Shown piece by piece: positions 7,797 to 31,680 of a stretch of 36,400 nt of DNA (position 1 is the first letter of the stretch; every line of letters begins with the position of its first letter). The notes under the pieces are model-generated. The model saw nothing but the letters and a program-made list of their open reading frames with translations, was not told where the DNA came from and searched no databases. A program made the position numbers and the translations under genes. The DNA comes from a virus: positions 1-36,400 of IMG/VR virus record IMGVR_UViG_3300045988_172432. The stretch is one strand, 5' to 3'.

Positions 7797-7947
7797 TAAA
7801 GTTGATAAGTTTAGGAGTTTAAGAGTTAAGAGGTCGCTTTTAAGAGTTGATAAGTTTATAAGTTGAAAGTTAAGAGGTCGCTTTTAAGAGTTGGGCAAGC
7901 AGAGGTAACCTCTTAACTTTTCAACTCCTAAACTTTTCAACTCATAA
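7797..7947. repeat. PME copy A (nested-palindrome mosaic element)
   Basis: Two left cores GTTAAGAGGTCGCTTTTAAGAGTT (7825, 7869), then GGGCAAGCAGAGGTAACCTCTTAAC (to 7917). Flanked by 8-bp TTNANNAG / CTNNTNAA arms. Confidence 0.9.
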
Positions 7948-7950
7948 AGA

Positions 7951-7982
7951 TTTGCATAATAAAGATATGTTTATTACCTTTG
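7951..7982 (+). promoter_or_regulatory. Candidate Bacteroides-type promoter for the plus-strand island
   Basis: TTTG (7951-7954), N20, TACCTTTG (7975-7982). The ATG at 8006 lies 24 nt downstream. Confidence 0.5.
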
Positions 7983-8005
7983 CGGTGTCTAATAACACAT
8001 AGACA

Positions 8006-8182
8006 ATGGATTTCACCGACGACAGTCTAAAGGACTGGGAGGAAACGCTGAAGCCCTTCAGGTTCCTCTTCCGCAATGAGGAAAGGCTCCTTAAATCGGG
8101 TCGCCTTACTGAGTCGGAATTTCTTGAAGACTTCTTTGATGCGGTGCTTGACGCCTGCGCCATGTTGTACGACAAGAAATGA
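8006..8182 (+). CDS. Small acidic protein (58 aa), below the ORF-track length cutoff
   Basis: ATG..TGA ORF MDFTDDSLKDWEETLKPFRFLFRNEERLLKSGRLTESEFLEDFFDAVLDACAMLYDKK, directly downstream of the promoter motif and co-oriented with the next gene. Confidence 0.5.
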   Translation: MDFTDDSLKDWEETLKPFRFLFRNEERLLKSGRLTESEFLEDFFDAVLDACAMLYDKK

Positions 8183-8310
8183 ATGCAACAGGCTGGCCTG
8201 CCTTGCCGCGTCAAGGAGCGTGCTGCAGGCGGGCGGCCTTTTGCTCGTCGGTGGGGCTGTCAGCCGGCATCAATCCATTCATGTGTCACACTTCATAAAA
8301 TTTTGTAGCT

Positions 8311-8724
8311 ATGAACGATAAAATCCGTCGCAAACTTGAGGCGAGCTATGCTGCCACCAACGACAATGACAGCGAGCTGTCGGGCCGCTTGCTCGACGAG
8401 GCCTTTGCCCTGTGCACCACTCCCGCCGAGGAGCGTGAGGCAGCGCAGTATGTGCGTGCCATGCTTGGGCGCGGGCGCAAGCGCACCGATGTGTGTGCCG
8501 CAGAGCTGCTTGGCGATGTAAGGCCCGCCCTGTCGCTGGCCTGGCTGAGCAAGCGCTACTTTAGCAAGGGCACCTCGTGGCTGCACCAGCGCATCAACGA
8601 GAACGTGGTGAACGGCAAGCCCGCCGCCTTTACCACCGAGGAACTTGGCGTGCTGTCGGCTGCATTGAACGACCTCGGGCAGCGTTTGCTTGCCGCGTCT
8701 GCCGACATCAGGGCACGCATCTGA
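8311..8724 (+). CDS. DUF5053-like protein (137 aa)
   Basis: C-terminal SWLHQRINENVVNGKPAAFTTEELGVLSAALNDLGQRL resembles the Bacteroidales phage-associated DUF5053 family (from memory). A paralog lies at 22625-22924. Confidence 0.65.
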   Translation: MNDKIRRKLEASYAATNDNDSELSGRLLDEAFALCTTPAEEREAAQYVRAMLGRGRKRTDVCAAELLGDVRPALSLAWLSKRYFSKGTSWLHQRINENVVNGKPAAFTTEELGVLSAALNDLGQRLLAASADIRARI

Positions 8725-8732
8725 GAGATTTC

Positions 8733-8925
8733 TTAAGTTGATGAGTTGATGAGTTTAAGAGTTAAGAGGGCGGTTTTATAAGTTGAGAAGTTTATAAGTT
8801 GAAAGTTAAGCGGTCGCTTTTAAGAGTTGGGCAAGCAGAGGTATCTTCTTAACTTTTCAACTCATAAACTCATCAACTTAAGAGTAACTTCTAAACTTTT
8901 CAACTTCTAAACTTTTCAACTTGAA
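8733..8925. repeat. PME copy B
   Basis: GTTAAGAGGGCGG..., then GTTAAGCGGTCGCTTTTAAGAGTTGGGCAAGCAGAGGTATCTTCTTAAC, with long 8-bp-unit arms. Confidence 0.9.
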
Positions 8926-8930
8926 AGTAA

Positions 8931-9029
8931 TAACTAAGTGCCGCACACAATAAGGGCGAAATCCATTACCGGGCATTTGGCACTTGTGCCTGTAAGCCTC
9001 CCACGAGTTGGGGGGCTTTTTTTGTTTTT
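8931..9029 (+). ncRNA. Candidate small structured RNA ending in an intrinsic terminator
   Basis: Unique ~100-nt segment between PME B and C. It has an inverted repeat AAGTGCC (8936-8942) / GGCACTT (8979-8985) and a terminal terminator hairpin. Confidence 0.25.
8996..9029 (+). terminator. Rho-independent terminator, plus strand
   Basis: GCCTCCC...GGGGGGC stem (8996-9016) followed by TTTTTTTGTTTTT. Confidence 0.65.
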
Positions 9030-9030
9030 A

Positions 9031-9146
9031 GAGTTGAAGGGGAGTAAAGTTGAAAAGTTGAGGAGTTGAGAAGTTAAGAGGAATGTTTTAGCGGTTGAAC
9101 TCGCAGAGGTAACCTCTTAACTTTTCAACTCCTAAACTTCTCAACT
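9031..9146. repeat. PME copy C
   Basis: GTTAAGAGGAATGTTTTAGCGGTTGAACTCGCAGAGGTAACCTCTTAAC with 8-bp-unit arms. Confidence 0.9.
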
Positions 9147-9155
9147 ATGAAAGCT

Positions 9156-9887
9156 TCAAAGCTTCAAAGCTTTCATCTCTTCTGCCTTGGCGTCGAGTTC
9201 GGTCAGCGCGTCGAGGGTGGGCGTGCTGAGCACGGCCGGTTGCTTGGTGATGTCGCCGCCTGTCAGAGCGCGCAGACAAGTAATCATCACCGCGCGCGGG
9301 TCGGGCGGCGTGCTGTCGGGGTCGGCCGAGCCGGGCGCGCCGAACAGGTGGGGGAACAGGCCCGTATACTGCGCCTTGAGCCCCACGAGCCACATGAGCA
9401 GCATCACGCGGTGCGCGTTGTCAAAGTCCGCCCCCGTGGTGCCGGGGTAGAGCGCCATGCCTATGGCGTCGAGAGCTTCGGGGCTTTGCACCTTGAGGTA
9501 GCCCTGGTAGTAGTTCTCCACCTCAAGGTAGGTGCGGAATGGCACCCCGTCGAGCATGGCGTCCACCGCGGCATGGCCTGCAATGTGGCTCATGCGCGAC
9601 GGTTCGGCGGGCGGCTGGGCTATAAAGTCCACCAGGGGCATGAGTTCTGCAATGTCGCCCTTAAGCTGGAGCAACACGCGGTGGCTCTGGCCGATGATGC
9701 GTGCCAGGAACAAGGCCTGCATCTCGTCGGGTGTCCATTCGCCTTGAGCCATCAGCGCACACAGGTAGTGGCGTTGCTCGTTGGTAAGGGCCAGCCACGA
9801 CTGCGGAATGTGAGCCTTAATAGAGGACTTCACCCTTTTAGCCGGATTATCCGAAAAAGAAGGAGGGGTCGGTTTGCTTGTTTTCAT
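9156..9887 (-). CDS. Hypothetical virion-module protein (243 aa)
   Basis: ORF in an operon with the putative portal. Its stop lies within the palindrome ATGAAAGCTT...AAGCTTTCAT (9147-9176). Confidence 0.6.
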   Translation of the reverse strand: MKTSKPTPPSFSDNPAKRVKSSIKAHIPQSWLALTNEQRHYLCALMAQGEWTPDEMQALFLARIIGQSHRVLLQLKGDIAELMPLVDFIAQPPAEPSRMSHIAGHAAVDAMLDGVPFRTYLEVENYYQGYLKVQSPEALDAIGMALYPGTTGADFDNAHRVMLLMWLVGLKAQYTGLFPHLFGAPGSADPDSTPPDPRAVMITCLRALTGGDITKQPAVLSTPTLDALTELDAKAEEMKALKL

Positions 9888-10701
9888 ACTGTGTGGTGTG
9901 TCGTGCTTGGTAAGTGGGGCTCAGCCTGTACTCGTCCAGCTGGTCGGCGTGCGCCTCAATAAAGTTGATGATGTGGCGTGTGTGGGTGGCCATGCCCGGC
10001 CCTTGCATCACGTGCGCCGCCATGAGCCTGCGTGCCATGGTCAGTGCCTCGGCGTAGGCCGCGGGCGTGGTGTCGGGCGTGAGGTCGGCGTCGGCCTCAT
10101 ACTGGTGGCCCACAAGTGCGGCATAGAGTTCGGGCGAGATGGCGTCCACCACACGGGCCGAAGCCGCGTGCAGCGCGGTGGCCATGGCTTCGAACTCCTC
10201 GCGCAGCACCTCGCGGCCGTCGGGGGTGCGTATGCCGTAGAGGGTGCACAGCGTGGGCGTCCAGAGCAGGGAGTCGGCCCGCGAGCGGCGCATGGTCATG
10301 AGGTTGTGGGCCGCCAGGTAGCTGAGCACGCCGTCCTCAAGCCGGCAAGCATCGCGGCGCAGCTGCAGGCGCAGGGCGTCCACACGCTCGCGGCTGGCGG
10401 GGGCGGTGTTCTGGTTGCTCACAATGCCAAAGCCTGTGGGCGTGAGCACGAGGTCCATTTGCGGCACGGCATCATAGGCCGCGCGCAGGCAGATGGCCGT
10501 GACAAGGCTGGCGGCCACATGGTCGGGCAGCGTGGCGTCGGTGGTGATGAGGGCCTGCCAGCTATCGGTGCAGCCCTGCACATAGCGCTGCACCTTGTTC
10601 CACACCTCGGGCGTGGGCGAGCGGAAGGCCGGCACGGCGCGCTCAAAGTCGGTGCGTTCAATTATTATCTCCATTGGCTGTAACTTTTTTCGCGTCGGCA
10701 T
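9847..10701 (-). CDS. Hypothetical virion-module protein (284 aa; alternative start ATG 10674)
   Basis: ORF overlapping the end of the putative portal gene. Both ATG 10701 and ATG 10674 are possible starts. Confidence 0.6.
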   Translation of the reverse strand: MPTRKKLQPMEIIIERTDFERAVPAFRSPTPEVWNKVQRYVQGCTDSWQALITTDATLPDHVAASLVTAICLRAAYDAVPQMDLVLTPTGFGIVSNQNTAPASRERVDALRLQLRRDACRLEDGVLSYLAAHNLMTMRRSRADSLLWTPTLCTLYGIRTPDGREVLREEFEAMATALHAASARVVDAISPELYAALVGHQYEADADLTPDTTPAAYAEALTMARRLMAAHVMQGPGMATHTRHIINFIEAHADQLDEYRLSPTYQARHTTQYENKQTDPSFFFG

Positions 10702-12001
10702 GTTCGTCGAGCGTGGTGAGTTGTATCATCGGGATTGTTGGCTCAATGTGCCCCCACTGGTTGTACCACAACACCATGTTTATAGGCGTGAGCAGCATGT
10801 CGTGGAAGGCTATCTCGAGAGCCTGCTTCATGGTAAAGAGTTCGCGTTTGTCGGAGCCCGAGTTGTTAGTCTGCGTTTTGCCCGGCACAGCCCCCACCAG
10901 GTTGGGGTGCACATTGTCGGCATAGCAAATGGTGTTGGCAGCGGCCTGCACGTCCTCGTTCCAGTCGCCGCCCTCCTTGGCCCCCTCTATGTTGACGATG
11001 CGAATGTCGCGCACCTCATGGCCGTCGGGGTTCACATAGTAGCCGCTAATCCACGCCTTGCCAGAGTTCTCCACACCGCACAGAAAGTCCTTGATGTTCT
11101 GCTTCTCGCGTGTGACGCGTTTCTGCATCTCCACGGGGTCGGTAATGTTCTCCTCCATGCAGATGCGCTGCCAGTAGGAGCGTTCAATCTCAATTTGGTA
11201 CTTCACGCTTGTGGTGTTGCGCAGTTTGGCCCGCTTGCCGGTGCTTATGAGGCGTTTCTCGTCGTAGGAGCCGCCGCGCAGCACGGCACTCCAGTAGGGC
11301 ACGGGGTAGTACTGCGCGCCCGCTGTGGGGAAACGCATGACCACGGCAAACTTGCGCGTGCGTGTTGGCGTGCGGCCTGTGGGCTGGTGCGTGTCGGGGT
11401 CGATGGCAAGGCGGCGGCACAAGTCGGCGTAGGGGTCGGCGAGCGATAGCAACTCTATGCGTTCCACGCCGTTGATGCCCTCCTGCCAGTCCTGCCAGTT
11501 GGCGTAGTACAGGTGGTTGATGCGTCCGCGGCGGTCGGCCTTTTCGAGGCGGCAGTGGCAAGCCTCCTTGTGCACAAGGCGGTTGATGCGGCGGCCGTCG
11601 CGTGAGAGTATGATGACGGCCACGGAGAAGTAAAAGTACTTCATGTCCGTCATTTGGTCGAGCATGTAGGCCGGCATGTTCTGCCTTCTGAGCCATGCGC
11701 GCACCTCGGGGTCGGTGGTGGGTTCATGGGTGGTGGAGTCGGTGAGCCTGAGTCCTGCGCCGTAGCATGTGAGCACGTTAAAGAGTTTGTTCTGTGCCGT
11801 CACCTCGTCTGATGCCACAAGGCGCACAAGGTCGTAGGGCAGCTGGTTGTCGGAGCCGTAGGGCACGTAAGCCTCATTGGGGTATCCCGGCACGGGGCGT
11901 GTGACGATGGTGCCGCCCGGGGTGTCGAACACGGAGGTGGTGTCCTCCACCTCGGCCATGACGGCGGCAAATTGGGTTTGGGGAATGGCGAAGAATTCCA
12001 T
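10658..12001 (-). CDS. Putative portal protein (447 aa)
   Basis: The size and the N-terminal YGSDNQLPYDLVRLVASDEVTAQNKLF...GAG segment resemble portal proteins of Bacteroidota phages as I recall them. No other portal-sized candidate exists. Confidence 0.5.
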   Translation of the reverse strand: MEFFAIPQTQFAAVMAEVEDTTSVFDTPGGTIVTRPVPGYPNEAYVPYGSDNQLPYDLVRLVASDEVTAQNKLFNVLTCYGAGLRLTDSTTHEPTTDPEVRAWLRRQNMPAYMLDQMTDMKYFYFSVAVIILSRDGRRINRLVHKEACHCRLEKADRRGRINHLYYANWQDWQEGINGVERIELLSLADPYADLCRRLAIDPDTHQPTGRTPTRTRKFAVVMRFPTAGAQYYPVPYWSAVLRGGSYDEKRLISTGKRAKLRNTTSVKYQIEIERSYWQRICMEENITDPVEMQKRVTREKQNIKDFLCGVENSGKAWISGYYVNPDGHEVRDIRIVNIEGAKEGGDWNEDVQAAANTICYADNVHPNLVGAVPGKTQTNNSGSDKRELFTMKQALEIAFHDMLLTPINMVLWYNQWGHIEPTIPMIQLTTLDEHADAKKVTANGDNN

Positions 12002-12015
12002 GGGAGGGAGGGGGG

Positions 12016-12172
12016 TTAAGTTTATAAGTTGAAGAGTTGAAAAGTTAAGAGGAATGTCAAGGGCGGGGGAAGGTTTATAAGTTGAGGAGTTGAAAAGTTA
12101 AGAGGTCGCTTTTAAGAGTCGAACTCGCAGAGGTGTCTTCTTAACTTCTCAACTCTTAAACTCATCAACTTA
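12016..12172. repeat. PME copy D
   Basis: Outer GTTAAGAGGAATGTC variant plus GTTAAGAGGTCGCTTTTAAGAGTCGAACTCGCAGAGGTGTCTTCTTAAC. It abuts the stop of the upstream gene. Confidence 0.9.
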
Positions 12173-13255
12173 TAAAAACGTTTCGTCAAACGTGAGGTCG
12201 AACGTGCGCACGGACAGCGGCGTGAGCACCGACATCCCGCTCTGGCTCTCGCGCCATGTCAGCGTGGCCGAGTCGGCCGTGTTGTAGGCATTCGAGCCCT
12301 TCACCTCGGCGGCGGTTATGGTTACGGCCGAGTCGTCGTGCCACACATAACGCGCCGTGGCCACGTCCTTGAGCAGTGCCACATCGGCCGCGCTGAGTGC
12401 GCCCGTGGTAGCCTTGAACTCTGCCTGCGCCTCCACGTTGGCATTGTAGGCCGAGCCGCCCACCACCACCTGCGTGTAGGTGGGCTTCAGCGTTTCCTCC
12501 ACCTCGCCATATATATATAAGGTGTCGTTCAGGCCAAACACGTTGGTAAAGTCGAGCGTGGTGACGGGTGCGGCGTCCATGTCCCATGGGGCGAGGCGGT
12601 AGTGCATGGTGCGCTGGCCCACCGTCACGTCGTAGCCCACGGGCTGGCTTGTGCGGCCCGTGAGCGGGCCGAATTGCTCGAGGGCCACAATGTAGCCGGG
12701 CGATGTGTTGTAGCAGAGCAATTCGTCGTTGTACTCCTCGGCCCTGAACTCGGAGCCGATGCGGCTCGTCTCGCCCGTGGTGAGGTCCATATATGTGACG
12801 CGCACGCTCACGGGCCGCTCCAGCTTCCGCTCCTCGTCGGTCGGCAGCCACACGAGCCGCTCCTTGGCCAGCTTCGGCACCACCTTGCAGCCGCCGCCCG
12901 CCAGGGTGAGGAAGGAGCGCTGCACAAAGTCGGCCCCGTTGATGTAGAGCCGCTGGCGCAGTGGCATGATGCTCACGGTGGCCAGCAGCTGGCCGTCGGC
13001 CTCTATGCGCAGGCTGTTGAGCCATTTGCCTTGCTCCGCCCGGGCTGTGGCGTGTGTGCTGATCAGCCAGCCAAGGTCGTGCAGGGCAAAGTGGCCGCGG
13101 GTGTCGGGTGTGAGGCTGGTGTCGAGCACCTCGGCCGTGCCGAGCGTGAGCCTTATGCGGCAGGGTGTGCCGGAAGTGCCGCCGAGGAACTCGAGGTTCT
13201 GTATCTCGGTGGCAAATGCCAGGGTGGGCAGCGTGGTGGTGAGGCTGATGGGCAT
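12170..13255 (-). CDS. Hypothetical structural protein (361 aa)
   Basis: Long ORF bounded by PME copies on both sides. No recognisable motif. Confidence 0.6.
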   Translation of the reverse strand: MPISLTTTLPTLAFATEIQNLEFLGGTSGTPCRIRLTLGTAEVLDTSLTPDTRGHFALHDLGWLISTHATARAEQGKWLNSLRIEADGQLLATVSIMPLRQRLYINGADFVQRSFLTLAGGGCKVVPKLAKERLVWLPTDEERKLERPVSVRVTYMDLTTGETSRIGSEFRAEEYNDELLCYNTSPGYIVALEQFGPLTGRTSQPVGYDVTVGQRTMHYRLAPWDMDAAPVTTLDFTNVFGLNDTLYIYGEVEETLKPTYTQVVVGGSAYNANVEAQAEFKATTGALSAADVALLKDVATARYVWHDDSAVTITAAEVKGSNAYNTADSATLTWRESQSGMSVLTPLSVRTFDLTFDETFL

Positions 13256-13269
13256 GGGGGTGGGGGGAT

Positions 13270-13312
13270 TTTAAGTTTATGAGTTGAAAAGTTGAAAAGT
13301 TAAGAGGAATGC
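13270..13312. repeat. PME copy E (left-arm-only half element)
   Basis: TTAAGTTTATGAGTTGAAAAGTTGAAAAGTTAAGAGGAATG. It is followed by an unrelated inverted repeat (13314-13364). Confidence 0.8.
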
Positions 13313-13872: not shown

Positions 13873-14297
13873 AGGTCGGCATATTCGGCCCTGGCGTCGA
13901 ACGATGGGCACGCCTTGCCGGGGTTAAGGTTGTGGTGGCCCACGATGCGGGCCTTGGGGTACTTGCGGCGCAGGCGGTGGAGCAGTGCGCCAAGGGCGGC
14001 CACTTGTGCCGTGGTGCGCGTGTCCTCGGGGCGGCGGCCTTGGGCGTCGAGCCCTCCCACGTAGCACACGCCCAGGCTCTGGTGGTTGTAGCCCTTGCAG
14101 TGTGCGCCCTGTACGGTTTCGGGGCGGCCCGTCTCGATGGTGCCGTCGAGGCGCACAAGGTAGTGGTAGCCTATCATGTCCCAGCCCTGCTGGCGGTGCC
14201 AGTGGTCCACGTCGGCGGCGGTGAAGTCCTTGCCGCGGGCGGTGGCCGTGCAGTGTACTATGAGGTACTTGATGTTTCGGGGGAAAAGTGTTGCCAT
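13869..14297 (-). CDS. N-acetylmuramoyl-L-alanine amidase endolysin (Amidase_2/PGRP type, 142 aa)
   Basis: IVHCTAT...DVDHWHRQQGW..IGYHYLV..DGTIETGRP...GAHCKGYN..SLGVCYVGG motif pattern, typical of T7-lysozyme-like amidases. Confidence 0.85.
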   Translation of the reverse strand: MATLFPRNIKYLIVHCTATARGKDFTAADVDHWHRQQGWDMIGYHYLVRLDGTIETGRPETVQGAHCKGYNHQSLGVCYVGGLDAQGRRPEDTRTTAQVAALGALLHRLRRKYPKARIVGHHNLNPGKACPSFDARAEYADL

Positions 14298-14299
14298 GA

Positions 14300-14546
14300 T
14301 GTTGAGTTTAGAAGTTGAGAAGTTGAGAAGTTAAGAGGAATGTCGGGCTTGGAGGGATTTAAGTTGAGAAGTTGAAGAGTTGAAAAGTTAAGAGGGCACT
14401 TTTAAGAGTTGAGGAGTTGAGAAGTTGAGAAGTTAAGAGGGCACTTTTAAGAGTTGGGCATGCAGAGGTGACCTCTTAACTTTTCAACTCTTAAACTTTT
14501 CAACTTAGCATTCCTCTTAACTTTTCAACTCATAAACTTTTCAACT
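14300..14546. repeat. PME copy F (largest, doubly nested)
   Basis: The outer pair AAGTTAAGAGGAATG (14329-14343) / CATTCCTCTTAACTT (14508-14522) encloses two GTTAAGAGGGCACTTTTAAGAGTT cores and GCAGAGGTGACCTCTTAAC. Confidence 0.9.
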
Positions 14547-14778
14547 AACTTCGCTTGTTGATTTCTTCTTTCAGTTCGGTGAACTTGCTTTGCACGTAGA
14601 TGCTCACGCCGAATATGGAGCCGGCATAAATGAGGCATTGGGCAAAGAACCACAGCACCGAGTCGCTGATTTCGCCCACCGGGGGCACCAGGAACCCCGC
14701 CACGCTCAGTGCCACACCCGCCAGGAGCATGGCCAGCGCCGAGTAAACTTGGTATTTCGTACGGTCTTCTTTGGTCAT
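14545..14778 (-). CDS. Holin-like small membrane protein (77 aa, two predicted TM helices)
   Basis: Two hydrophobic segments and a charged C-terminus. One PME away from the amidase gene. Confidence 0.45.
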   Translation of the reverse strand: MTKEDRTKYQVYSALAMLLAGVALSVAGFLVPPVGEISDSVLWFFAQCLIYAGSIFGVSIYVQSKFTELKEEINKRS

Positions 14779-14786
14779 AGGGAATA

Positions 14787-14926
14787 AAAGTTGAGGAGTT
14801 GAAAAGTTGAGAAGTTAAGAGGGCGCTTTTAAGAGTTGAGAAGTTGAGAAGTTAAGAGGGCGCTTTTAAGAGTCGAACTCGTAGAGGTGACTTCTTAACT
14901 TTTCAACTTTTCAACTTTTCAACTTA
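14787..14926. repeat. PME copy G
   Basis: Two GTTAAGAGGGCGCTTTTAAGAGT cores, then CGAACTCGTAGAGGTGACTTCTTAAC, then TTTTCAAC x3. Confidence 0.9.
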
Positions 14927-14959
14927 AAAGCCCAACTTCAGGAACTGAAGTTGGCTTTT
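14926..14959 (-). terminator. Intrinsic terminator-like hairpin embedding the stop codon of the 457-aa gene
   Basis: 11-bp stem with one bulge (14930-14941 / 14945-14955). On the minus strand it is followed by UUUUAAGUU. Confidence 0.55.
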
Positions 14960-16312: not shown

Positions 16313-16426
16313 TTTAGGAGTTTATAATTATAAAGTTGATGAGTTGAAAAGTTAAGAGGTCGGTTTTATGAGTTGGGCAAGCAGTGGTAACCTCTGAACT
16401 TTTCAACTCTTAAACTTTTAGACTTT
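16313..16426. repeat. PME copy H
   Basis: GTTAAGAGGTCGGTTTTATGAGTTGGGCAAGCAGTGGTAACCTCTGAAC with arms. Confidence 0.9.
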
Positions 16427-16488
16427 ACAACATAGGGGGATAGTTTTAACGACATAGGGGGATAGTTTTTTCTTGCGCCCTATGTTGT
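16427..16488. repeat. Short iteron block: 2 x ACATAGGGGGATAGTTTT plus an inverted CCCTATGTTGT
   Basis: Near-identical (~55 bp) to 28374-28430 inside the large iteron array. T-tracts at 16444 and 16466 give a 22-bp period. Confidence 0.85.
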
Positions 16489-16493
16489 TTTAG

Positions 16494-16904: not shown

Positions 16905-16916
16905 GGGGGTGGCGTT

Positions 16917-22538: not shown

Positions 22539-22577
22539 AAAAAAAAGCCCGCCGGCCTCGGGGTGAGGCTGGCGGGC
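22539..22577 (-). terminator. Rho-independent terminator after the DUF5053-like paralog
   Basis: 11-bp GC-rich stem (22547-22557 / 22567-22577, one mismatch). A8 on plus (22539-22546) gives U8 on minus. Confidence 0.75.
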
Positions 22578-22624
22578 TGGGGGTGTAATAAAAACAAATG
22601 AGTGGGGGTGTGAATGACTAAGAG

Positions 22625-22924: not shown

Positions 22925-22998
22925 AACACTGCAAAGATAATAATATTATACTTATTGATAAAGGAAACAATAAGCCTTTTTGTATTATTTGATTGGCA

Positions 22999-24621
22999 TC
23001 AGCCGCCGCCAGTGACGACGAGTTGCACGGGCTGCTGCGGGAAACGTTCGCAACCTATATATAAGGTGTCGAAAGCGTCGGAGCCGTCGGTGCGGCTTTC
23101 GAGGCGGTCCTCGTCGGTCTCGGCCAGCTTTTCGCGTCGCTTGTCCTTCTTGCCGTTGTACACGCCGGCAGTCTGTACGGAGATGAGCAGGTCGGGGTTG
23201 TTGGGTTCGTTAAAGAATGGCATGAGCCGGGCCTTGCCGTCGAAGCCGCGGTTGATGAGTTGGTACTTCTCAAGATGCTTCATGGGGGTGCCTATGTAAA
23301 CGGGGCGCACGCGCCAGCCGTGCAGCTGCAGCTCGTGGGTGATAACCCAGCGAAAGTCCTGATCGTTGACGGCGTAGTTGGAGCCGAGGGCGGTGGCGTC
23401 GTAGTAGAACACGACCTCGTGCATGGGCAGCGGGTCGTAGTACTGGCAGAAGTCGGCTATGAGGGCGGGCAGCTTGCGCTCATACTTTACGTAGAATGAC
23501 TTTAGCACATTGAGGCGGCGGCGGTCCTCGTCGGGCTGGCCTGCCACGAGCCAGTTGATGTTGTTGTTATAATCGAAGGCTATGCACAGTGGGTGGCCGC
23601 GGTTGATGTCGGCATCGGCCTTGCATGTGCCGGCCATCTTGCTGAGTGCCTTGAAGTCGTAGCCCAGGGCGTCGACCACATGGTAGTCGGTGGAGGTGTA
23701 GCGGTGCGAGGGGCGCATTGATGAGTAGAAGCCGTCCTTGAGCACCTCGATGGGGCGGCACAGTATGGAGGTGCGGAACACCATGGGGGTGAGGTCGCGC
23801 CGCATTTGGCGCACCCATGCCTCGCCCAGCACTTCGATGTTGGTCAGGCTGGAGTAGGTGCGGTAGAGTGTGGCGCGGCGGCGGAGCGAGGCGAGCAGGC
23901 TTTGTGCCTGCCTGATGCGTTCGGGCAGGTAGGGGGTGGTGTCGCCATGGGCCATGCGCTGCAGGGTTTGTTGCTCGTCGGCCACGAGTGCCTCGATGGT
24001 GCTGATGAGTTCAGCATCGCACTGGTCGGCGTAGCGCATGAACCATGAGCCGCGGCGGCTTATGGGCATGTCGGAGGTGATGAGCATGCCGTGGTGGAAG
24101 GGCAGGTCGCCAAACTCGCGCTGCTGCCCGCGGTTGGCGGGAAAGGTTTCGTCCTTCAGCCGTTCGTAGTCTACAAACTTGGCTTCGTCTATGTCTATGT
24201 AGTCAAAGCTCTTCGAGTTGGAGTTGCCCACGCGGTCCTGGCTCACTATCTGGCCTATTGCGCCGTTGTAGAAGGTGATGATGTTCTCCCAGTTTTCGGG
24301 GGTGACAAGTGGTGCGGGCCAGTCGAGCGCGCGTGGCGGGCGGTGGCCTATGTCCCAGTGCAGGCCGCGGCGGTAGCCCCATTTCTCCCAGTGCTCGAAC
24401 ATTGAGGGCAGTGTGTTGGTCTTTGCCCTGATGGCTGTGGGGCACACAAAGGCGGTGGTGCTGCGTGGCATGGCCTGCATGTTGCGCAGGTTTATCCAGG
24501 CGTGCAGCATGCTCTTGCCTGTGCCTCGGCCGGCCACAATGACGTTGGTGTGGGCGTCGATGGCGCACACTTCGCGCTGCATGCGGTTCATGTATATTTG
24601 TGGGGGTGTGGGGGTGCTCAT
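22999..24621 (-). CDS. terL: Terminase large subunit (540 aa)
   Basis: Walker A VAGRGTGKS, Walker B-like FDYIDIDEAKF, and a C-terminal nuclease-like region. Typical size. Confidence 0.9.
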   Translation of the reverse strand: MSTPTPPQIYMNRMQREVCAIDAHTNVIVAGRGTGKSMLHAWINLRNMQAMPRSTTAFVCPTAIRAKTNTLPSMFEHWEKWGYRRGLHWDIGHRPPRALDWPAPLVTPENWENIITFYNGAIGQIVSQDRVGNSNSKSFDYIDIDEAKFVDYERLKDETFPANRGQQREFGDLPFHHGMLITSDMPISRRGSWFMRYADQCDAELISTIEALVADEQQTLQRMAHGDTTPYLPERIRQAQSLLASLRRRATLYRTYSSLTNIEVLGEAWVRQMRRDLTPMVFRTSILCRPIEVLKDGFYSSMRPSHRYTSTDYHVVDALGYDFKALSKMAGTCKADADINRGHPLCIAFDYNNNINWLVAGQPDEDRRRLNVLKSFYVKYERKLPALIADFCQYYDPLPMHEVVFYYDATALGSNYAVNDQDFRWVITHELQLHGWRVRPVYIGTPMKHLEKYQLINRGFDGKARLMPFFNEPNNPDLLISVQTAGVYNGKKDKRREKLAETDEDRLESRTDGSDAFDTLYIGCERFPQQPVQLVVTGGG

Positions 24622-25127
24622 GGGTGGTGGTGTGTGTGATTATTGCCACTTGCGTGGGCATATTTTTTGCCTAAAATTACGCCGGCCTGCGCATAGAGGC
24701 GCCGCATACGGTAAAACTTTTGCCTTACGCCCTCGCGGTAGATGAGTGCGATGCCGTTGGCCTGGCACCATTGGTCGATGCCGCGGTTGAGTGTGCCGCT
24801 GTGTATGAGGCTCACGCACTCGCTCCACAGGGCGATGCTGAAGAGGTTGGCCACGGCGCGTGCCATTTCGCCCTGTGCCCTGCGTGAGAGGTGGCACCAG
24901 TATTCGGGCCGCCGCAGGGCGTGGTCGGTTATGACTATTGCCACGCTGTCGGGCGGACAGGTTGGCCCCGTGGCGGCGGTGGCTCCTGCTGCGGGGCGTG
25001 AGAGCAGGCGGTGTAGGAGCATGTTCTCGTAGGAGCGTGAGGGGAAGCGCACGGGGGTGCCAAAGTGGTGGGTGAGCCATTGGCGCAGGTATGGCTCAAG
25101 GCGCAGGTACACGGTGAGGTCTTTCAT
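24618..25127 (-). CDS. Possible terminase small subunit, by position only (169 aa)
   Basis: Its stop overlaps the TerL start by 4 nt. It is the first gene of the packaging operon. No motif recognised. Confidence 0.35.
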   Translation of the reverse strand: MKDLTVYLRLEPYLRQWLTHHFGTPVRFPSRSYENMLLHRLLSRPAAGATAATGPTCPPDSVAIVITDHALRRPEYWCHLSRRAQGEMARAVANLFSIALWSECVSLIHSGTLNRGIDQWCQANGIALIYREGVRQKFYRMRRLYAQAGVILGKKYAHASGNNHTHHHP

Positions 25128-25147
25128 GTGGGGGGAGGGGGGAAAAT

Positions 25148-25312
25148 TAAAGTTGATGAGTTGAAAAGTTTAGAAGTTAAGAGGAATGTCGGGCTTGGAG
25201 CTTTTTAAGTTTAGAAGTTCATAAGTTGAGAAGTTAAGAGGTCGCTTTAAGAGTTGGACAAGCAGAGGTAACCTCTTAACTTTTCAACTTATAAACTCAT
25301 CAACTTAGAACT
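25148..25312. repeat. PME copy O
   Basis: GTTAAGAGGAATGTCGGGCTTGGAG variant plus GTTAAGAGGTCGCTTTAAGAGTTGGACAAGCAGAGGTAACCTCTTAAC. Confidence 0.9.
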
Positions 25313-27474: not shown

Positions 27475-27478
27475 GGTG

Positions 27479-27617
27479 TTTAAGTTTATAAGTTTAAGAG
27501 TTGAAAAGTTTAGAGGAATGTCAAGTTGAGAAGTTGAAGAGTTAAGAGGCTACCTCTGCTTACCAAACTCTTAAAAGCGACCTCTTAACTTCTCAACTTT
27601 TCAACTCCTCAACTTTT
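27479..27617. repeat. PME copy Q, core in inverted orientation relative to all other copies
   Basis: GTTAAGAGGCTACCTCTGCTTACCAAACTCTTAAAAGCGACCTCTTAAC (27541-27589) is the reverse complement of the usual core arrangement. Confidence 0.9.
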
Positions 27618-27621
27618 CGCC

Positions 27622-27873
27622 TTACCAATATACGCTCATGTGGTCAATTTCAAAGAGTGTGCAGTCGCGGAACTCGCGAATGAGTGCCGACTGCGGGAGC
27701 CTGATGCGGTGTGTGCCGCGTCGCTTGTGTCCGCCTATGCAGCGTGCGCCCTCGTAGGTGAGTATGTCGCCTGTTGAGAGTTTCCACACGCGCAGGCGGT
27801 GCGGTTCCCCGTCTTCGAGCAGGCGCAGGGCGTCGTGCTGGCTGATGCTGGAGTGTAGTTTGGGTGTGTTCAT
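27622..27873 (-). CDS. Hypothetical early protein (83 aa)
   Basis: ORF coupled by a 4-nt overlap to the upstream membrane-protein gene. Confidence 0.55.
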   Translation of the reverse strand: MNTPKLHSSISQHDALRLLEDGEPHRLRVWKLSTGDILTYEGARCIGGHKRRGTHRIRLPQSALIREFRDCTLFEIDHMSVYW

Positions 27874-28175
27874 TGGCGTGGGTTTTTGAGGTTTCGTGCT
27901 ATTTCGGCTTCTATTACTTGCTGGTTGTGGTGTGTGGCGGCTTCGTAGCGGCGGCCGTCGCCGAAGCCTTCTTCCTTTCCGGCTTTGTGTCCGTCGTCGT
28001 AGCCCCTGGTGTAGCCTTCGTCGTAGGCTGCGAGGCGGGTGTTGCTTGTGACTTGGCGCAGCTGGTCGTCGGCTGTGGCCTGTGTGCGGCGGCAGCCGTA
28101 GTGGTAGGCTGCGGCGGTGGCGATGATGAGGGCCAGAAGGCCGAGGGGCAGGAGGGTGATGGTGAGTAGTGTCAT
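27870..28175 (-). CDS. Small membrane-anchored protein (101 aa)
   Basis: N-terminal hydrophobic helix LLTITLLPLGLLALIIATAAA. ATG 28173-28175. Confidence 0.55.
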   Translation of the reverse strand: MTLLTITLLPLGLLALIIATAAAYHYGCRRTQATADDQLRQVTSNTRLAAYDEGYTRGYDDGHKAGKEEGFGDGRRYEAATHHNQQVIEAEIARNLKNPRQ

Positions 28176-28180: not shown

Positions 28181-28304
28181 GAAGTTTTTTTAGTTTATAA
28201 GTTTGAGAGTAAAGTTGAAGAGTTGAAGAGTTAAGAGGTCGGCTTAAGTGGCTGAACTCGCTGAGGTAACCTCATAAGCTTCCCAACTTATAAACTTTTC
28301 AACT
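28181..28304. repeat. PME copy R
   Basis: GTTAAGAGGTCGGCTTAAGTGGCTGAACTCGCTGAGGTAACCTCATAAGC with arms. It abuts the iteron array. Confidence 0.85.
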
Positions 28305-28459
28305 TTACGACATAGGCGACGCGTTTTTTCTCTCCGCCTATACAGTTTTTTCTCTCAGTCGATATCGTTTTTACTACATAGGGGGATAGTTTTAACGACA
28401 TAGGGGGATAGTTTTTTCTATCGCCCTATATCGTTTTTTCTCTCCCCCTATGTCGTAAA
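28304..28459. repeat. Iteron array (about 7 units, exact 22-bp phasing); candidate replication origin
   Basis: T-tracts start at 28324, 28346, 28368, 28390, 28412 and 28434. Units resemble CATAGGGGGATAGTTTTTTCT. Bounded by the inverted repeats CTTTACGACATAGG / CCTATGTCGTAAAG. Confidence 0.6.
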
Positions 28460-28623
28460 GTTGGAAAGTTTAAGAGTTGAGGGGGGAGTTGAAAAGTTGA
28501 AGAGTTAAGAGGGCGGTTTTTAGAGTTGATAAGTTGAAAAGTTTAAGAGTTAAGAGGTCGGTTTAAGTGGTTGAACTCGTAGAGGCAACCTCTTAACTTT
28601 TCAACTTATAAACTTTTCAACTT
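28458..28623. repeat. PME copy S
   Basis: GTTAAGAGGGCGGTTTTTAGAGTT, then GTTAAGAGGTCGGTTTAAGTGGTTGAACTCGTAGAGGCAACCTCTTAAC. It lies between the iterons and the primase-helicase stop. Confidence 0.9.
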
Positions 28624-28628
28624 CACAC

Positions 28629-31541
28629 TCAGCTTCCCCATTCCTCGTCCGGCACAAATCCCGCCTCGGGGTCGAGGTGCGCCCCCGTGTCGAGTTGTTC
28701 GCGGTTCGCCTGGCTCTTGGTGGAGCGCAGGTATATCATGTCCTCGCTCTTGCCGTCGATGCGGCGCGATATGCGGCCCTGCGAGTTGAGCAAGTCGGCG
28801 GGGTTGTAGTCGTACACGTAGGGGCAGAGGGCGGCAAAGGAGCGCAGCGCCTTGGTAAACTTGTTCATGGTGTAAAAGTTCTTGTTCACCTTTGCCTCGT
28901 CAATAAAGGCATCGTAGGCCTCGCGGCGCACGATGAAGGTGTCGAGGTTGTCGCCCTCCTCGGCAAAGTACACGTTGGCCCATTCTTCGAAGTTGGTGCC
29001 CATGTCGGCCTTGAACTTGCGCTTCAAGATGTTGCCCATGGGCGGCATGGGCTTGACGCTCTCCTGACACATCGACAGGTAGAACTGGCAGCACTGCATA
29101 AAGAAGTTGATGTCGGCGTTCCAATTCTCCTCCTTGTATGAGGAGCTTATGAGGTCGCGCCCGAAGTCGTCGCGAATGCTGCGGCTCTCAAGGTAGTCGT
29201 TGCCCTCGGTGCGCTGGTGGTAGTAGTCGCTGAACACGAGGTAAAGCAGGCGCGCCTCGGTGCTGGGGCTGAAGTCGCGCGGCACATAGTTGGTTGTAAA
29301 GCCAAACTTGGGGCTTTGTTCAAAGGGTATGGTGTAGCTCTGGTTGTTCTTGGGGTTGACCGTCATGTCCGAGGTGATGAGGTCATAAAAGGCCCCCGTA
29401 TCAAGGTGGCGGTCGCAGTCGTCAACGAGCACAAAGTCGGTGTGCTGCGTCACTTGGTCGAACACGTGCGGGTTGTCCATCAGCTTGGCGTTGCGCCCGC
29501 TCAGCTTCACCGTTTTCATGAAGAGGCTGAGGGCCTTGAACAGGAACGACTTGCCGCTTCGGCCGTTGCACTCGCCGTCCTCGCCTATCTTGTTGTCCAT
29601 GGCCATGGGTGCCCACGCCCTCGAGGGGCTTTTGTAGCGGTGCAGCATGTAGCCTATGGCAAAGAGCTTCGACACAAGGTTCTGCTCCTGCTCATGCTGC
29701 TCGTCGGGCGTGAGGCCCTCGCCGTCGATGCAGAACTTGTGGGCGCGGTGGTAGGCTTCGGCCTCCGAGGCATCGCGCTCGGCAAAGTTGTACTCCAGCT
29801 CCTTGCGCCAGTGCACGCGGCTCGTGTTGATTACGTAGCCAAACAGGGGGCTGCTCTCGGCGTCCTTCACCTTCACCCCGAAGCGCGCCTCGCCCGTGGG
29901 TGTCACGCTGCGCTCCACCTCAAACATGGGGGGCATGAGTGTGACGCGGTGGTCCAGCACATTCTCCTGCCACACATAGCGGTCGAGCCCGTCGCCCCCG
30001 GCGTGCTCCACAAGGCCCGTGGGGGTGGCCTCAATCGTCTTGCCGGGGAAAAAGAATAGCTGCGTGGTGGGCGTGTAGTTGGTAAAGTCGAGCGTCACCT
30101 CGCGCATGTTGTCGAGTGCCGAGTCGCTCAGACGGGGCGAGTTGTGTATGAGGTTGCGCACAGGCCGCGGCAGGCACCGCTCCTCGGCCCACTCGCTTAT
30201 GAAGCGGCGCAGGTCCTTGGCCTTCACCTCGCGCACAATGTTGCCCTGCACGTGTATGTAGCGCGCCTCCTTTATGTTGTCGTCGTGCAGGGTGTAAAAG
30301 CCGTTCAGCCGCAGGAAGTTGTACAGGCATTCCGTGTCGATGTCATACGTCACGGCCCCCGTCTTGCGGTTGGTGCGCTCCGTCCAGAACTTGGCCGGCA
30401 TGGCCAGCGCCATCAAGCCCGCAAAGTCGCTCCGCCTGTCGCGCAGCTCCTGCCAGTCGCGCAGGTCCTTGCGCGGGCGGCCGCGGTTGTCGCGGTACTG
30501 CGTGAGCGTCTGCGGCAGCCATATGGTGTGAATGTCTATGAAGCGCAGGGCCAGCTCGCGCCCCTTGCGCTCGCCCGTGCTGTCGAGGTCGGGAATGTTG
30601 TAGAGCACCTCCACATACTTCATCACCTCCTTGTACTCTGCCTCGCTCAGGCGGTACGTCTCGCTGTTGAACCACAGCGGGCTGTAGCCCATGGAGTGGC
30701 AGCACAGCGAGTCGCGCTCGCCCGAGCATATGAAGGCCTCCTTTAGCTTTTGCTCCCGGTAGGGCTTGTCCTCGTTGGCAGGGTCGCGGTAAAAGGCTGC
30801 CTCCTCCTCGGCGTTCATCTTGCGCCACAGGGCTTTCAGCTCGTGCAGCCCGTTGATGTAGGCCTTGGGCTTGCCACCCGCGGGGTGGTAGCTGAAGCGG
30901 AAGCCCTTGTCGGGGTTGAGCGGCTCATATATTTTGTAAAACTTTACTTCGGCCTTTTCGCCGCCGCCCTCCTCCACCACGCACTCGCGCATGAATATGG
31001 GGTAGTTCTCGGTGGAGTACTTGAGCGTCACCTCGCGGTTCTTAACATAGCCCACATACTCCGCCTCGTACCAGTGCAACGCGTCGGTGTCGGCGTGCGT
31101 CACCCGCGGGCCAAGCACCTTGAGGTGGGCCTCGGGTATGCGCTCGAGCAGGGCAAAGATGCGTGTGCCGTCCTTCTCGTCGGCCGTGGCGGGGCGGTGC
31201 TTGATGTCGGGCTTGTTCACGGTGCGGTTCAGCTCGTCACGCACGTCGAACATGGCGGCCAGCTTGAGCACTGCCTCGTAGGGGCGGTCAATGCCCTCCT
31301 CCTTCATGCAGATGTCGAGCGGGCTTTGGGCGTGGCCCTCGTCGCCGAAGTCGGTCACCTTCCACACGCCCTCGCCCCCCTGTGTGTGGCACAGGTAGAG
31401 GCAGGCCGAGGGCGTTTTGTCGGAGGGGCGCACCCTGAACTTGTTTTTGGTGCCCACCACCTCGCGGGCCTGCGGGTAGTAGTGCAGTATGATATCGAGC
31501 CCCTCGTTGGTGGCACGATATAGGTTTTCTATTCTTATCAT
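28629..31541 (-). CDS. Bifunctional DNA primase-helicase (Toprim-like region plus D5/P4-type SF3 NTPase, 970 aa)
   Basis: Toprim-like FICSGERDSLC and IPDLDSTGERKG. Walker A NGRSGKSFLFKAL. Walker B FVLVDDCD. Confidence 0.8.
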   Translation of the reverse strand: MIRIENLYRATNEGLDIILHYYPQAREVVGTKNKFRVRPSDKTPSACLYLCHTQGGEGVWKVTDFGDEGHAQSPLDICMKEEGIDRPYEAVLKLAAMFDVRDELNRTVNKPDIKHRPATADEKDGTRIFALLERIPEAHLKVLGPRVTHADTDALHWYEAEYVGYVKNREVTLKYSTENYPIFMRECVVEEGGGEKAEVKFYKIYEPLNPDKGFRFSYHPAGGKPKAYINGLHELKALWRKMNAEEEAAFYRDPANEDKPYREQKLKEAFICSGERDSLCCHSMGYSPLWFNSETYRLSEAEYKEVMKYVEVLYNIPDLDSTGERKGRELALRFIDIHTIWLPQTLTQYRDNRGRPRKDLRDWQELRDRRSDFAGLMALAMPAKFWTERTNRKTGAVTYDIDTECLYNFLRLNGFYTLHDDNIKEARYIHVQGNIVREVKAKDLRRFISEWAEERCLPRPVRNLIHNSPRLSDSALDNMREVTLDFTNYTPTTQLFFFPGKTIEATPTGLVEHAGGDGLDRYVWQENVLDHRVTLMPPMFEVERSVTPTGEARFGVKVKDAESSPLFGYVINTSRVHWRKELEYNFAERDASEAEAYHRAHKFCIDGEGLTPDEQHEQEQNLVSKLFAIGYMLHRYKSPSRAWAPMAMDNKIGEDGECNGRSGKSFLFKALSLFMKTVKLSGRNAKLMDNPHVFDQVTQHTDFVLVDDCDRHLDTGAFYDLITSDMTVNPKNNQSYTIPFEQSPKFGFTTNYVPRDFSPSTEARLLYLVFSDYYHQRTEGNDYLESRSIRDDFGRDLISSSYKEENWNADINFFMQCCQFYLSMCQESVKPMPPMGNILKRKFKADMGTNFEEWANVYFAEEGDNLDTFIVRREAYDAFIDEAKVNKNFYTMNKFTKALRSFAALCPYVYDYNPADLLNSQGRISRRIDGKSEDMIYLRSTKSQANREQLDTGAHLDPEAGFVPDEEWGS

Positions 31542-31544
31542 AGG

Positions 31545-31680
31545 GTTTGGAGTTAGAGTCGGAGTTTGGAGTTTTTCAAGTTGAAAAGTTGAAGAGTTGA
31601 AAAGTTAAGCGGTCGCTTTTAAGAGTTCGAACTCGCAGAGGTAACCTCTTAACTTTTCAACTCATAAACTCATCAACTTG
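31545..31680. repeat. PME copy T
   Basis: GTTAAGCGGTCGCTTTTAAGAGTTCGAACTCGCAGAGGTAACCTCTTAAC with arms. Confidence 0.9.

Follow-up and report, generated by a model that had tools for sequence, protein, structure and literature searches.

The classical intervening sequence (IVS) is a selfish stem-loop insertion, the loop of which may hold an S23p open reading frame (ORF) (PMC4990558). In Coxiella, the IVS has an AG-rich 5' end, tandem short repeats (heptamers) whose number varies between strains, and a 28-bp terminal stem that is cut by RNase III (PMC4990558). Here we describe a family of palindromic elements in the IMG/VR virus record IMGVR_UViG_3300045988_172432, positions 1 to 36,400; this whole stretch of 36,400 nucleotides, called the window below, is a complete prophage of Prevotella type. 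The elements are shared with the host, lie within operons, contain no promoter and fill the space between the stop codon of one gene and the start codon of the next. Sequence comparison suggests that they belong, as a subfamily carried by phages, to a wider family of palindromic repeats located between cistrons in the Prevotellaceae, with look-alikes in other phyla; the phage load is unusually high in a group of Prevotellaceae prophages, where the elements carry a conserved, phage-restricted loop. Among described systems, they would by analogy work most like IVSs and like the repetitive extragenic palindromic (REP) sequences and bacterial interspersed mosaic elements (BIMEs) of enterobacteria and pseudomonads. 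No description of such elements was found in Rfam or in the searchable literature (on PF05635 genes, the literal motifs, Prevotella prophage stem-loops and Bacteroidetes REPs).

The likeness to the 23S rRNA IVSs of Coxiella, Leptospira and Salmonella lies in the terminal inverted repeats that form a long stem, in a variable loop that may hold a PF05635 gene, in the AG-rich 5' side, in tandem short repeats of strain-variable number, and in insertion into a transcribed region without disruption of host function; in addition, a Prevotella PF05635 gene is bracketed by arms with the units and core of the phage elements. Unlike these IVSs, which lie in helices 9, 25 or 45 of 23S rRNA, the elements are located between protein-coding cistrons of phage, nuo, trp and other operons. 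The phage copies contain no ORF (as is true of many known IVSs), their arms are tandem 8-nt units that are often nested or multiplied, and their cleavage by RNase III is putative. REP sequences and BIMEs, for which roles in mRNA stabilisation and in HU/IHF binding have been proposed, are likewise intergenic palindromic mosaics with units in both orientations, variable between strains and located between co-directional genes of operons. Their extragenic dispersal within operons of the host chromosome is matched by copies in the nuo operon and among housekeeping genes, though these copies are clustered. The elements differ in their 8-nt periodic arms, in being far denser in phage than in adjacent chromosome, and in that no REP-associated tyrosine transposase (RAYT) gene is seen among the larger ORFs of the window. 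A classical REP is a short GC-rich palindrome with a GTAG or CGTC tag (PMC3733652); since the elements are AT-rich and have neither tag, they are not classical REPs.

The promoter early stem-loop (PeSL) of T4-type phages consists of a strong host-type early promoter and a terminator stem-loop (PMC2839356, PMC4122927). PeSLs are also repeated intergenic phage stem-loops that flank variable or accessory genes and are tied to the insertion, deletion and shuffling of cassettes. The elements, however, have no host-type promoter or canonical terminator, lie inside operons and are common to the host chromosome; for want of a promoter they are not PeSLs (PMC2839356). The start-associated sequence (SAS) of Cluster K mycobacteriophages is a 13-bp asymmetric motif that includes a Shine-Dalgarno (SD)-like sequence, and its extended form (ESAS) has arms of 17 bp (PMC3203893). 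Both are phage repeats at the translation starts of a subset of genes, are kept at orthologous genes and are suspected of a translational function, the ESASs having in addition imperfect inverted repeats with a variable spacer. At 105–250 nt, periodic, free of G beside the start codon and not restricted to phages, the elements are not SAS or ESAS. The RNase III sites of phage T7 are few and each unique in sequence, with a characteristic internal loop. As hairpins between the cistrons of long phage transcripts they resemble the elements, the putative cleavage of which would also separate messages and shape 5' and 3' ends, but they are not a dispersed repeat family. Integron attC core sites have the arrangement R''/L''–L'/R' with the consensus RYYYAAC ... 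GTTRRRY and are used with the integrase IntI. The GTTAAGA and TCTTAAC of the elements only approximate this consensus and, since IntI is missing, the elements cannot be counted as attC sites.

The 16 full and two half copies that a preliminary description of this DNA had reported are confirmed. The sequence GTTAAGAGG is present 33 times in the window, against 0.16 expected, and arm, core and loop come out of the repeat search as families D1–D7. A strict unit pattern finds 83 purine-type and 61 pyrimidine-type 8-mers, all of them within 7.8–31.7 kb. The cores of the loop-bearing copies start at 7869, 8805, 9073, 12097, 14432, 14851, 16351, 17346, 18535, 19206, 19984, 25233, 28230, 28549 and 31604, and one core is inverted (27541–27597); the arm-only copies are at 13276–13299 and 21093–21116. 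Together, the delimited spans add up to about 2.6 kb and make up about 7% of the window, close to the earlier figures of about 2.5 kb and about 7%. The anatomy proposed before, that of nested mosaic palindromes of 8-nt units placed at gene junctions, is right, and the core given for it is found exactly at 7869–7917. C is indeed missing from the purine arms and G from the pyrimidine arms, and both loop subfamilies are real, with seven copies of the TTGGGCAAGC type and nine of the TTGAACTCGC type. The outer variant GTTAAGAGGAATG, said to lie closest to the start codon in at least six copies, is located at 9073, 12044, 13299, 14330, 18431 and 25176 (an approximate copy starts near 27508) and is the array closest to the start codon except at 9073. 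Elements were not found in 353–7794 (the tail operon), in 9156–12001 or anywhere past 31.7 kb, as had been noted, nor in 21121–25127. That they occupy almost every junction is overstated, although most non-overlapping gaps are filled: of 33 junctions on the minus strand, 11 join genes that overlap or lie no more than 12 nt apart, an element is present at 15, and the other seven are gaps without one. This corresponds to elements at 15 of 22 non-overlapping minus-strand junctions, or 15 of about 20 inside 7.8–31.7 kb.

Read in the sense of the mRNA, an element consists of a purine arm of 8-nt units (AGTTNANN) that follows the stop codon, a loop of 31 nt, and one to three pyrimidine arms that precede the AUG. 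On the plus strand, 1–39 nt separate the beginning of the purine array from the start codon of the minus-strand gene downstream; the distance from the end of the pyrimidine array to the stop codon of the upstream gene is −7 to +15 nt, with one exception where another repeat intervenes. Three asymmetries follow the direction of transcription. The orientation of loop and core relative to transcription is constant in 15 of 16 copies. On the plus strand there are 31 purine and 19 pyrimidine arrays (purine at least equal to pyrimidine in 15 of 15 gaps and in excess in 11), so the extra pyrimidine arms sit beside the AUG. Finally, both half copies are the arm proximal to the start codon. Between positions −40 and −1, the leaders behind elements contain 1% G, against 14% in other genes; leaders are CA-rich and G-poor throughout the phage. 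The hairpins are predicted to end before the initiation region, leaving the start codon region unpaired: the predicted probability of being unpaired, averaged from −20 to +10, is 0.68 for genes behind elements and does not differ significantly from the 0.58 of other genes (p = 0.19). Occlusion of the start codon by the element was considered and is rejected by this predicted accessibility. C-rich tracts (e.g. CCCCCCUCCCUCCC) are located directly 5' of the AUG, upstream of the start codons at 12001, 13255, 16904 and 25127. Before the ATG of HU2, one of two adjacent HU-HIG genes (HU1 and HU2), the tract is present with or without an element upstream.

The same elements are found in chromosomes. 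When 185,579 species genomes were scanned with an 18-mer that runs across arm and core, 73 loci were obtained, and every genome that carries clusters of elements belongs to the Prevotellaceae. In a chromosomal nuo operon of Prevotella, units of the phage type, the GTTAAGAGG core and the placement from stop to start are present at almost every junction. An uncultured Prevotella metagenome-assembled genome (MAG) has matches on four contigs, between ordinary genes (neighbours encode an ABC transporter, an Fe-S assembly protein, RadC, a glycosyltransferase, QueG, an M16 peptidase and a flippase). The elements can therefore not be regarded as a phage feature of the lytic transcription unit, as had been proposed, because units, core and placement are the same in the nuo operon and between housekeeping genes. 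The opposite case, an element spread evenly in host chromosomes outside prophages, agrees with the data in so far as chromosomal copies exist, but these occur in clusters, within certain operons. Per 10 kb, there are 9–19 arrays at nuo loci, 13.8 in the prophage as a whole and 20.5 in its 7.8–31.7 kb span; the flanking host DNA (16.8 kb) has 0, and unrelated viral DNA has 0.04.

At one Prevotella locus (L063:3113–3590), two arms bracket an ORF of family PF05635 (S23p, '23S rRNA intervening-sequence protein'; E = 1e-36). Homologues of this ORF, with 62–95% identity and some of them on more than 100 contigs, likewise have such arms on both sides and are always located between nuoCD and nuoH of the chromosomal nuo operon, co-directionally with it. 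At the nuo junctions H–I, I–J and J–K, ORF-less elements made up of purine arm, loop and pyrimidine arm abut the stop and start codons. One nuo junction element includes an AGAGG-TAT-CCTCT mini-hairpin, and the nuo elements vary by strain, with lengths of 94 and 272 nt at the same junction. More distant PF05635 genes are found co-directionally at trpG/trpD (in two Flavobacteriia), gatC/pyrG and fadB-like/thiolase junctions, with strong periodic inverted arms in five of seven contexts. The layout common to the family is a stop codon, a purine-rich tandem 8-nt arm, a variable loop, one or more complementary pyrimidine-rich arms and a start codon. As some chromosomal members hold a PF05635 gene in the loop, the family is architecturally the same as the classical rRNA IVSs. 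No rRNA gene was found in the window or near the PF05635 elements, and no PF05635 homologue in the window or in phage and viral collections. The PF05635 genes (S23p, 'four helix bundle') at these junctions of conserved operons are those of loci L163–L171 (Prevotella metagenome contigs), L172, L173, L174 and L175, and most of them lie between periodic purine/pyrimidine inverted arms.

Many of the 73 loci are single matches in unrelated phyla, about 25 of which lie in an 8-nt periodic purine array that is often followed by its pyrimidine complement; as far as sequence goes, this suggests a cross-phylum class of such purine/pyrimidine hairpins. Periodic purine arrays of the form ([GA]AGA[AG]G[TG]T)n were seen at L029, L038, L040, L045, L049, L051–L053, L057, L059, L062, L073, L080, L083 and L084, from Nitrospirota, Nitrospinota, Acidobacteriota, Desulfobacterota and other phyla, several of them with a complementary pyrimidine array directly after. 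In a Nitrospirae MAG (L066, 4769–4870), a periodic purine/pyrimidine hairpin array is apparently in frame inside an ORF for a BioA-like aminotransferase, a situation that recalls the Rickettsia palindromic elements, which insert into coding sequence.

Because of the IVS-like architecture, and because their arms match those of the S23p-carrying Prevotella element, we regard the phage elements as ORF-less, IVS-like intercistronic hairpins. The full reading, in which they are probably cut by RNase III, are tolerated or co-opted as spacers and only incidentally provide homology for recombination, has in our judgement an even chance of being correct. The elements would be transcribed within polycistronic phage mRNAs and would fold into self-contained stems of about 26–45 bp, likely substrates of host RNase III, as the stems of IVSs are. 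Cleavage would split the transcript at cistron boundaries, leaving a G-free, unstructured pyrimidine leader before each downstream start, and either cleavage or self-containment would make the elements harmless, or useful, as cistron spacers. They would persist, tolerated and possibly co-opted in this way, wherever genes do not overlap. At the DNA level, comparison shows that the interchangeable arms undergo rapid gain and loss of units and supply homology for cassette exchange. Among the roles listed in the preliminary description, that of an RNase-processing or stabilising hairpin is the best-fitting, and the G-free arms proximal to the start also fit a translational role in a phylum without SD sequences (PMC7366714).

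The z-scores of the long hairpins that the copies form are −5 to −10, and the arms are paired with 82% Watson-Crick pairs over 34 positions. Other properties of the fold weigh against the IVS-like reading. Pairing of an arm with the other arm of its own copy is no better than with arms of other copies (445 observed versus 447.8 ± 4.7 on permutation, p = 0.76), so that there is no covariation; AGTT.A.. / ..T.AACT is invariant every 8 nt, and the remaining positions of the unit vary independently. An RNAalifold analysis of the 49-nt core in 28 copies, taken from four phage lineages, gave no consensus structure for either strand. The mutually exclusive folds of CCTCT suggested earlier are both available, each in about 85–87% of cells, but neither is supported by covariation, as variation breaks the pairings rather than compensating for them. 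With no covariation in arms or core, structure is not demonstrably selected beyond the shared consensus of the units. Moreover, the hairpins in mRNA sense are weaker than the antisense ones in 15 of the 16 window copies (−714 versus −913 kcal/mol, summed). The other points on this side are that copies are missing from the immediate host flanks, that cleavage by RNase III is suggested by stem length and the IVS analogy only, that the link to PF05635 would follow from common arms and architecture and not from a demonstrated derivation, and that the conserved, phage-restricted loop is not explained by a pure spacer hairpin. The strand bias in folding is probably compositional, from the G-poor sense strand: 122 G·U pairs are present on the plus strand (antisense to the genes) and 34 on the sense strand. 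In chromosomal and other-phage copies, the antisense hairpin is more stable in 11 of 16 overall and in four of seven nuo copies. An antisense RNA from the plus strand was considered and rejected, because the asymmetry is mixed in the chromosomal copies and tracks the G-poor sense strand, and because the elements have no plus-strand promoter apart from one chance TAnnTTTG.

The 31-nt loop, counting both subfamilies, gives 16 matches in the window, 50 in close relatives, 21 in IMG/VR contig 175129 and 19 in a prophage of Prevotellamassilia timonensis, and is also present once per subfamily on other viral contigs, so at least three phage lineages carry it. In about 90 kb of array-bearing Prevotella chromosome it was never found. 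As the loop is confined to phages and the arms are chromosomal too, the arms represent the family shared with the host and the loop marks the phage-borne subfamily. Within the loop, GCAGAGG is 98–100% conserved over 64 distinct copies, and this conservation hints at sequence-specific recognition. The HU-HIG pair and part of a gene for a 457-aa protein are the best-conserved genes common to the three element-dense phage lineages, making the HU-HIG proteins a candidate partner of the elements on the circumstantial ground of co-occurrence. The 8-nt units are missing altogether from the phage of IMG/VR contig 170189 (L124), whose HU-HIG protein is only 53% identical to HU1; on either side of its HU gene lie, instead, direct arrays of a 9-nt unit (GGCATAATA / GGCTCATTA), at 7496–7683 and 9093–9321. 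These arrays are not genome-wide but confined to the surroundings of the HU gene. A broader proposal would hold that IVS-type elements, rather than being peculiar to rRNA, are a widespread and hitherto undescribed class of operon spacers that occupy junctions between mRNA cistrons across phyla, neutralised or used via excision by RNase III, and also that temperate Prevotella phages have amplified a subfamily with a 31-nt loop that is read by a phage factor, for which the HU-HIG pair is a candidate, coordinating the processing or translation of nearly every non-overlapping cistron. Both parts together we think unlikely to be true.

Eight IMG/VR contigs, 83–94% identical to the window, served for comparison. 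All orthologous junctions that could be recovered in them still carry an element, with a near-exception in L117 (the gap at 19152), and no gain or loss of an element was seen among them; junctions 16312 and 28176 were recovered in no relative. Identity between the elements is 40–85% and their length 92–261 nt, while the flanking 200 nt are 93–97% identical; the two directly comparable element-free gaps (22450 and 25635) are 90–95% identical. Presence is thus conserved, with a content that turns over fast by gain and loss of units. A moron with a DUF5053 gene is located between two elements. Three relatives lack it and have just one element there, and in a fourth it has been replaced. Two further element-dense lineages, the P. 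timonensis prophage (L025, L043, L085) and contig 175129, share with the window little beyond the HU-HIG pair (83–90% amino-acid identity) and part of the 457-aa protein. The order of cassettes is HU1-HU2, 457-aa gene, holin, amidase in the window, 457-aa gene, HU1-HU2, amidase in the P. timonensis prophage, and 457-aa gene, HU1, element, HU2, amidase in contig 175129, with an element at each boundary. The element between HU1 and HU2 is found in the last lineage only, and comparison of the filled junction with the empty one reveals no target-site duplication. At L097, three pyrimidine modules are present in tandem before the ATG. The arms are interchangeable and offer homology for inserting, deleting and permuting cassettes. 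The recombination hotspots that had been suggested agree with this insertion, deletion and permutation, but identity jumps between relatives are not enriched at the elements (p = 0.36).

On the mRNA strand, no element contains a Bacteroidota-type promoter (TAnnTTTG or TTTG-N17-23-TAnnTTTG), and sigma-70-type promoters are not enriched in the elements. Terminator-like sites are not enriched over shuffles (19 versus 19.7 and 25 versus 20.2), and the stems are AT-rich, with no 3' U-tract on the mRNA strand; in six copies, what the terminator scan flagged on the plus strand was a local AGAGGTAACCTCT hairpin with a T-rich tail behind it. Element-free gaps hold promoter-like TAnnTTTG motifs (at about 25666, 22932 and 6810) and good terminators (25807–25780 and 22559–22544), and each minus-strand junction is overlapping, bears a promoter or terminator, or bears an element. 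The element-free gap 22925–22998, with a promoter-like TAtcTTTG on the minus strand, is 74 nt long in the window and 289–290 nt in three close relatives. Rfam gave no match to the elements at gathering thresholds. A permissive search returned sub-threshold matches to generic long hairpins of pre-miRNA type and one weak match to BTnc231, a Bacteroides small RNA (24.6 bits versus a gathering threshold of 80.4; 14766–14961, plus strand), spanning an element and a hairpin at 14932–14954 that scores as a terminator on both strands. This match was set aside, since BTnc231 is an independent small RNA with its own transcription start site and terminator.

The elements can be explained in other ways. 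As translation-initiation modules for a host without SD sequences, their functional part would be the start-proximal pyrimidine arm, which gives a G-free, unstructured leader that the purine arm and stem would only sequester and shield from GC-rich coding RNA; alternatively, the stem would join the upstream stop to the downstream start for re-initiation. Bacteroidetes mRNAs lack SD sequences and rely on A-rich leaders (PMC7366714), and much of the anatomy suits such a role: the half copies retain the start-proximal arm only, extra arms are always on the start side (with three pyrimidine modules at L097), the leaders have 1% rather than 14% G, the initiation region is predicted to be open, and every minus-strand junction that neither overlaps nor bears a promoter or terminator has an element. 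We still consider it doubtful, as accessibility does not differ significantly from that of element-less genes (p = 0.19), these genes have G-poor, CA-rich leaders as well, the C-rich tract before the ATG does not depend on an element, and similar arrays occur in phyla that use SD sequences. Alternatively, AGTT/AACT every 8 bp, the 31-nt loop, or both, could be bound as DNA by a phage protein, HU-HIG being the obvious candidates, that organises, compacts or regulates the phage DNA in the way HU acts on REP-derived structures. Four to five of the eight positions are invariant and the others do not co-vary, as would be the case for a sequence motif rather than a stem; the loop, found in phages only, is conserved over three or more of their lineages; the HU-HIG pair, itself flanked by elements, is the best-conserved module (83–90% identity) of otherwise diverged element-dense phages; and the phage with the 53%-identical protein has different, 9-nt periodic arrays around that gene. 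Those arrays are local to the gene, however, and chromosomal copies of the elements lie in operons with no HU-HIG gene nearby. A central spacer of 31 nt disfavours cruciform extrusion, and HU-HIG genes are common in Bacteroidales mobile elements generally, so that the co-occurrence may reflect phylogeny. On balance, such binding arrays are improbable.

Quite improbable, too, is that the elements exist in order to promote the exchange of cassettes between phages, like PeSLs or integron attC sites. The cassette insertion, deletion and replacement between two elements, the order that is permuted between three phage lineages with an element at every junction, the HU1/HU2 element of one lineage only and the interchangeable arms are what selected recombination modules would produce, but as by-products of dispersed homology they are explained more simply, and cassette shuffling is best seen as its consequence. 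Such modules are also at odds with the lack of identity jumps at elements (p = 0.36), with the missing promoter, unlike PeSLs (PMC2839356), with a sole integrase of Phage_int_SAM_5 type at the att end where an integron-type integrase is wanting, and with the stability of the same elements in a nuo operon of unchanging gene order. The preliminary description also named bidirectional terminators that need phage antitermination, and selfish repeats like miniature inverted-repeat transposable elements (MITEs). Long hairpins at gene ends and the AGAGGTAACCTCT hairpin with its T-rich tail in six copies recall the former, and a repetitive, palindromic nature recalls the latter. Against termination stand the missing U-tract, a terminator scan without enrichment and the presence of elements inside the essential, co-expressed nuo operon. 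Of MITE-like mobility there is no sign: relatives show no gain or loss, the single filled-versus-empty junction has no target-site duplication, no transposase or RAYT gene is present among the larger ORFs of the window scanned against Pfam and PHROGs, and the GTAG/CGTC tag is absent (PMC3733652). Terminators and actively transposing MITEs are therefore both highly improbable.

The window is bounded by an exact direct repeat of 44 nt, found in the repeat search at 1–44 and 36357–36400; the two copies are presumably attL and attR of the prophage. The repeat looks like the 3' end of a tRNA gene. The phage genes are almost all on the minus strand, and Pfam and PHROGs scans recognise a tape-measure protein, an amidase, the two HU-HIG proteins, a ClpP-like protease and the large terminase among their products. 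The G+C content is about 57% in the prophage and 50–51% in the flanking host DNA, and DUF5053, HU-HIG and the type of integrase point to the Bacteroidales. No phage record similar to the coding region or to an element was found among deposited records, and the single plasmid match there is spurious. Adjoining the most upstream element, ARAGORN called a tRNA-Gly(GCC) of 91 nt at 31703–31793 on the minus strand; because Rfam at the gathering threshold finds no tRNA anywhere in the window, this call is doubtful or the gene atypical. A second repeat family, ACGACATAGGGGGATAG-TTTTTT-CTATCGCCCTAT..., forms GC-rich hairpins with T runs at 16424–16491 and 28304–28459, adjoining an element at both places (downstream of HU2 and downstream of the gene for a 970-aa protein). 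These hairpins could be terminators, operators or origin-like iterons. Coordinates of the individual features are given in Table 1.

Table 1. Elements and selected genes of the window, with positions counted from its first nucleotide.
Feature	Position	Strand	Context and composition
Element	7797–7945	−	Between start of gene 7291–7794 and plus-strand moron; in mRNA sense one purine arm, type A loop, two pyrimidine arms
DUF5053 moron	7951–9030	+	Bacteroidota-type promoter TTTG...TAccTTTG at 7951–7982, 58-aa ORF, DUF5053 gene 8311–8724, intrinsic terminator 8994–9018
Composite element	8730–8925	−	Downstream end of DUF5053 moron; 89% identical to copy at 7794–7942
Element, AATG-type core and type B loop	9030–9150	−	Adjoins stop of gene 9156–9887
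Element	12015–12175	−	Between stop of gene 12170–13255 and start of gene 10658–12001; outer AATGTC variant closest to start codon
Half copy, start-proximal arm only (pyrimidine arm in mRNA)	13268–13312	−	Upstream of gene 12170–13255
Largest nested composite, three plus-strand purine and two pyrimidine arrays	14297–14548	−	Between holin-like and amidase genes
Element	14785–14928	−	Between 457-aa gene and holin-like gene; separate hairpin next to it at 14932–14954
Element	16318–16425	−	Upstream of 457-aa gene; second repeat family (16424–16491) beside it
HU-HIG gene pair (PF18291), adjacent	16494–17309	−	Identified by Pfam
Simple element, one arm pair	17312–17425	−	Upstream of HU-HIG gene pair
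Composite element, three plus-strand purine arrays and one pyrimidine array	18400–18612	−	
Element, type A loop	19148–19282	−	
Composite element	19918–20108	−	Between 320-aa and 206-aa genes
Half copy, start-proximal arm only	21088–21118	−	Upstream of gene 20116–21078
Element	25145–25312	−	5' end of packaging and head operon, upstream of gene 24618–25127
Element, sole copy with core and loop inverted relative to transcription	27478–27620	+	
Element	28188–28305	−	Upstream of gene 27870–28175
Composite element	28455–28628	−	Adjoins stop of 970-aa gene
Element, most upstream copy	31570–31685	−	Upstream of 970-aa gene
Integrase, Phage_int_SAM_5 type	34869–36161		At att end; only integrase

For the phages and their hosts, the elements are a tangible source of the short stretches of common sequence through which cassettes can be shuffled in phage evolution, and they explain local assembly breaks and hypervariability at gene junctions. 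Their arms mark cistron boundaries in Prevotella phages and operons, an aid to gene calling and to the choice of start codons, while the phage-restricted loop offers a compact marker, at the sequence level, of one group of Prevotellaceae prophages from the gut. If the reading as IVS-like hairpins acting at the RNA level is true, it would show by what means bacteria without SD sequences divide long operons and keep the internal cistrons translatable, an open question for the Bacteroidota. It would also mean that the S23p/IVS element, whose biology has been obscure since around 1990, is found not just in rRNA but in ordinary operons and phages as well.

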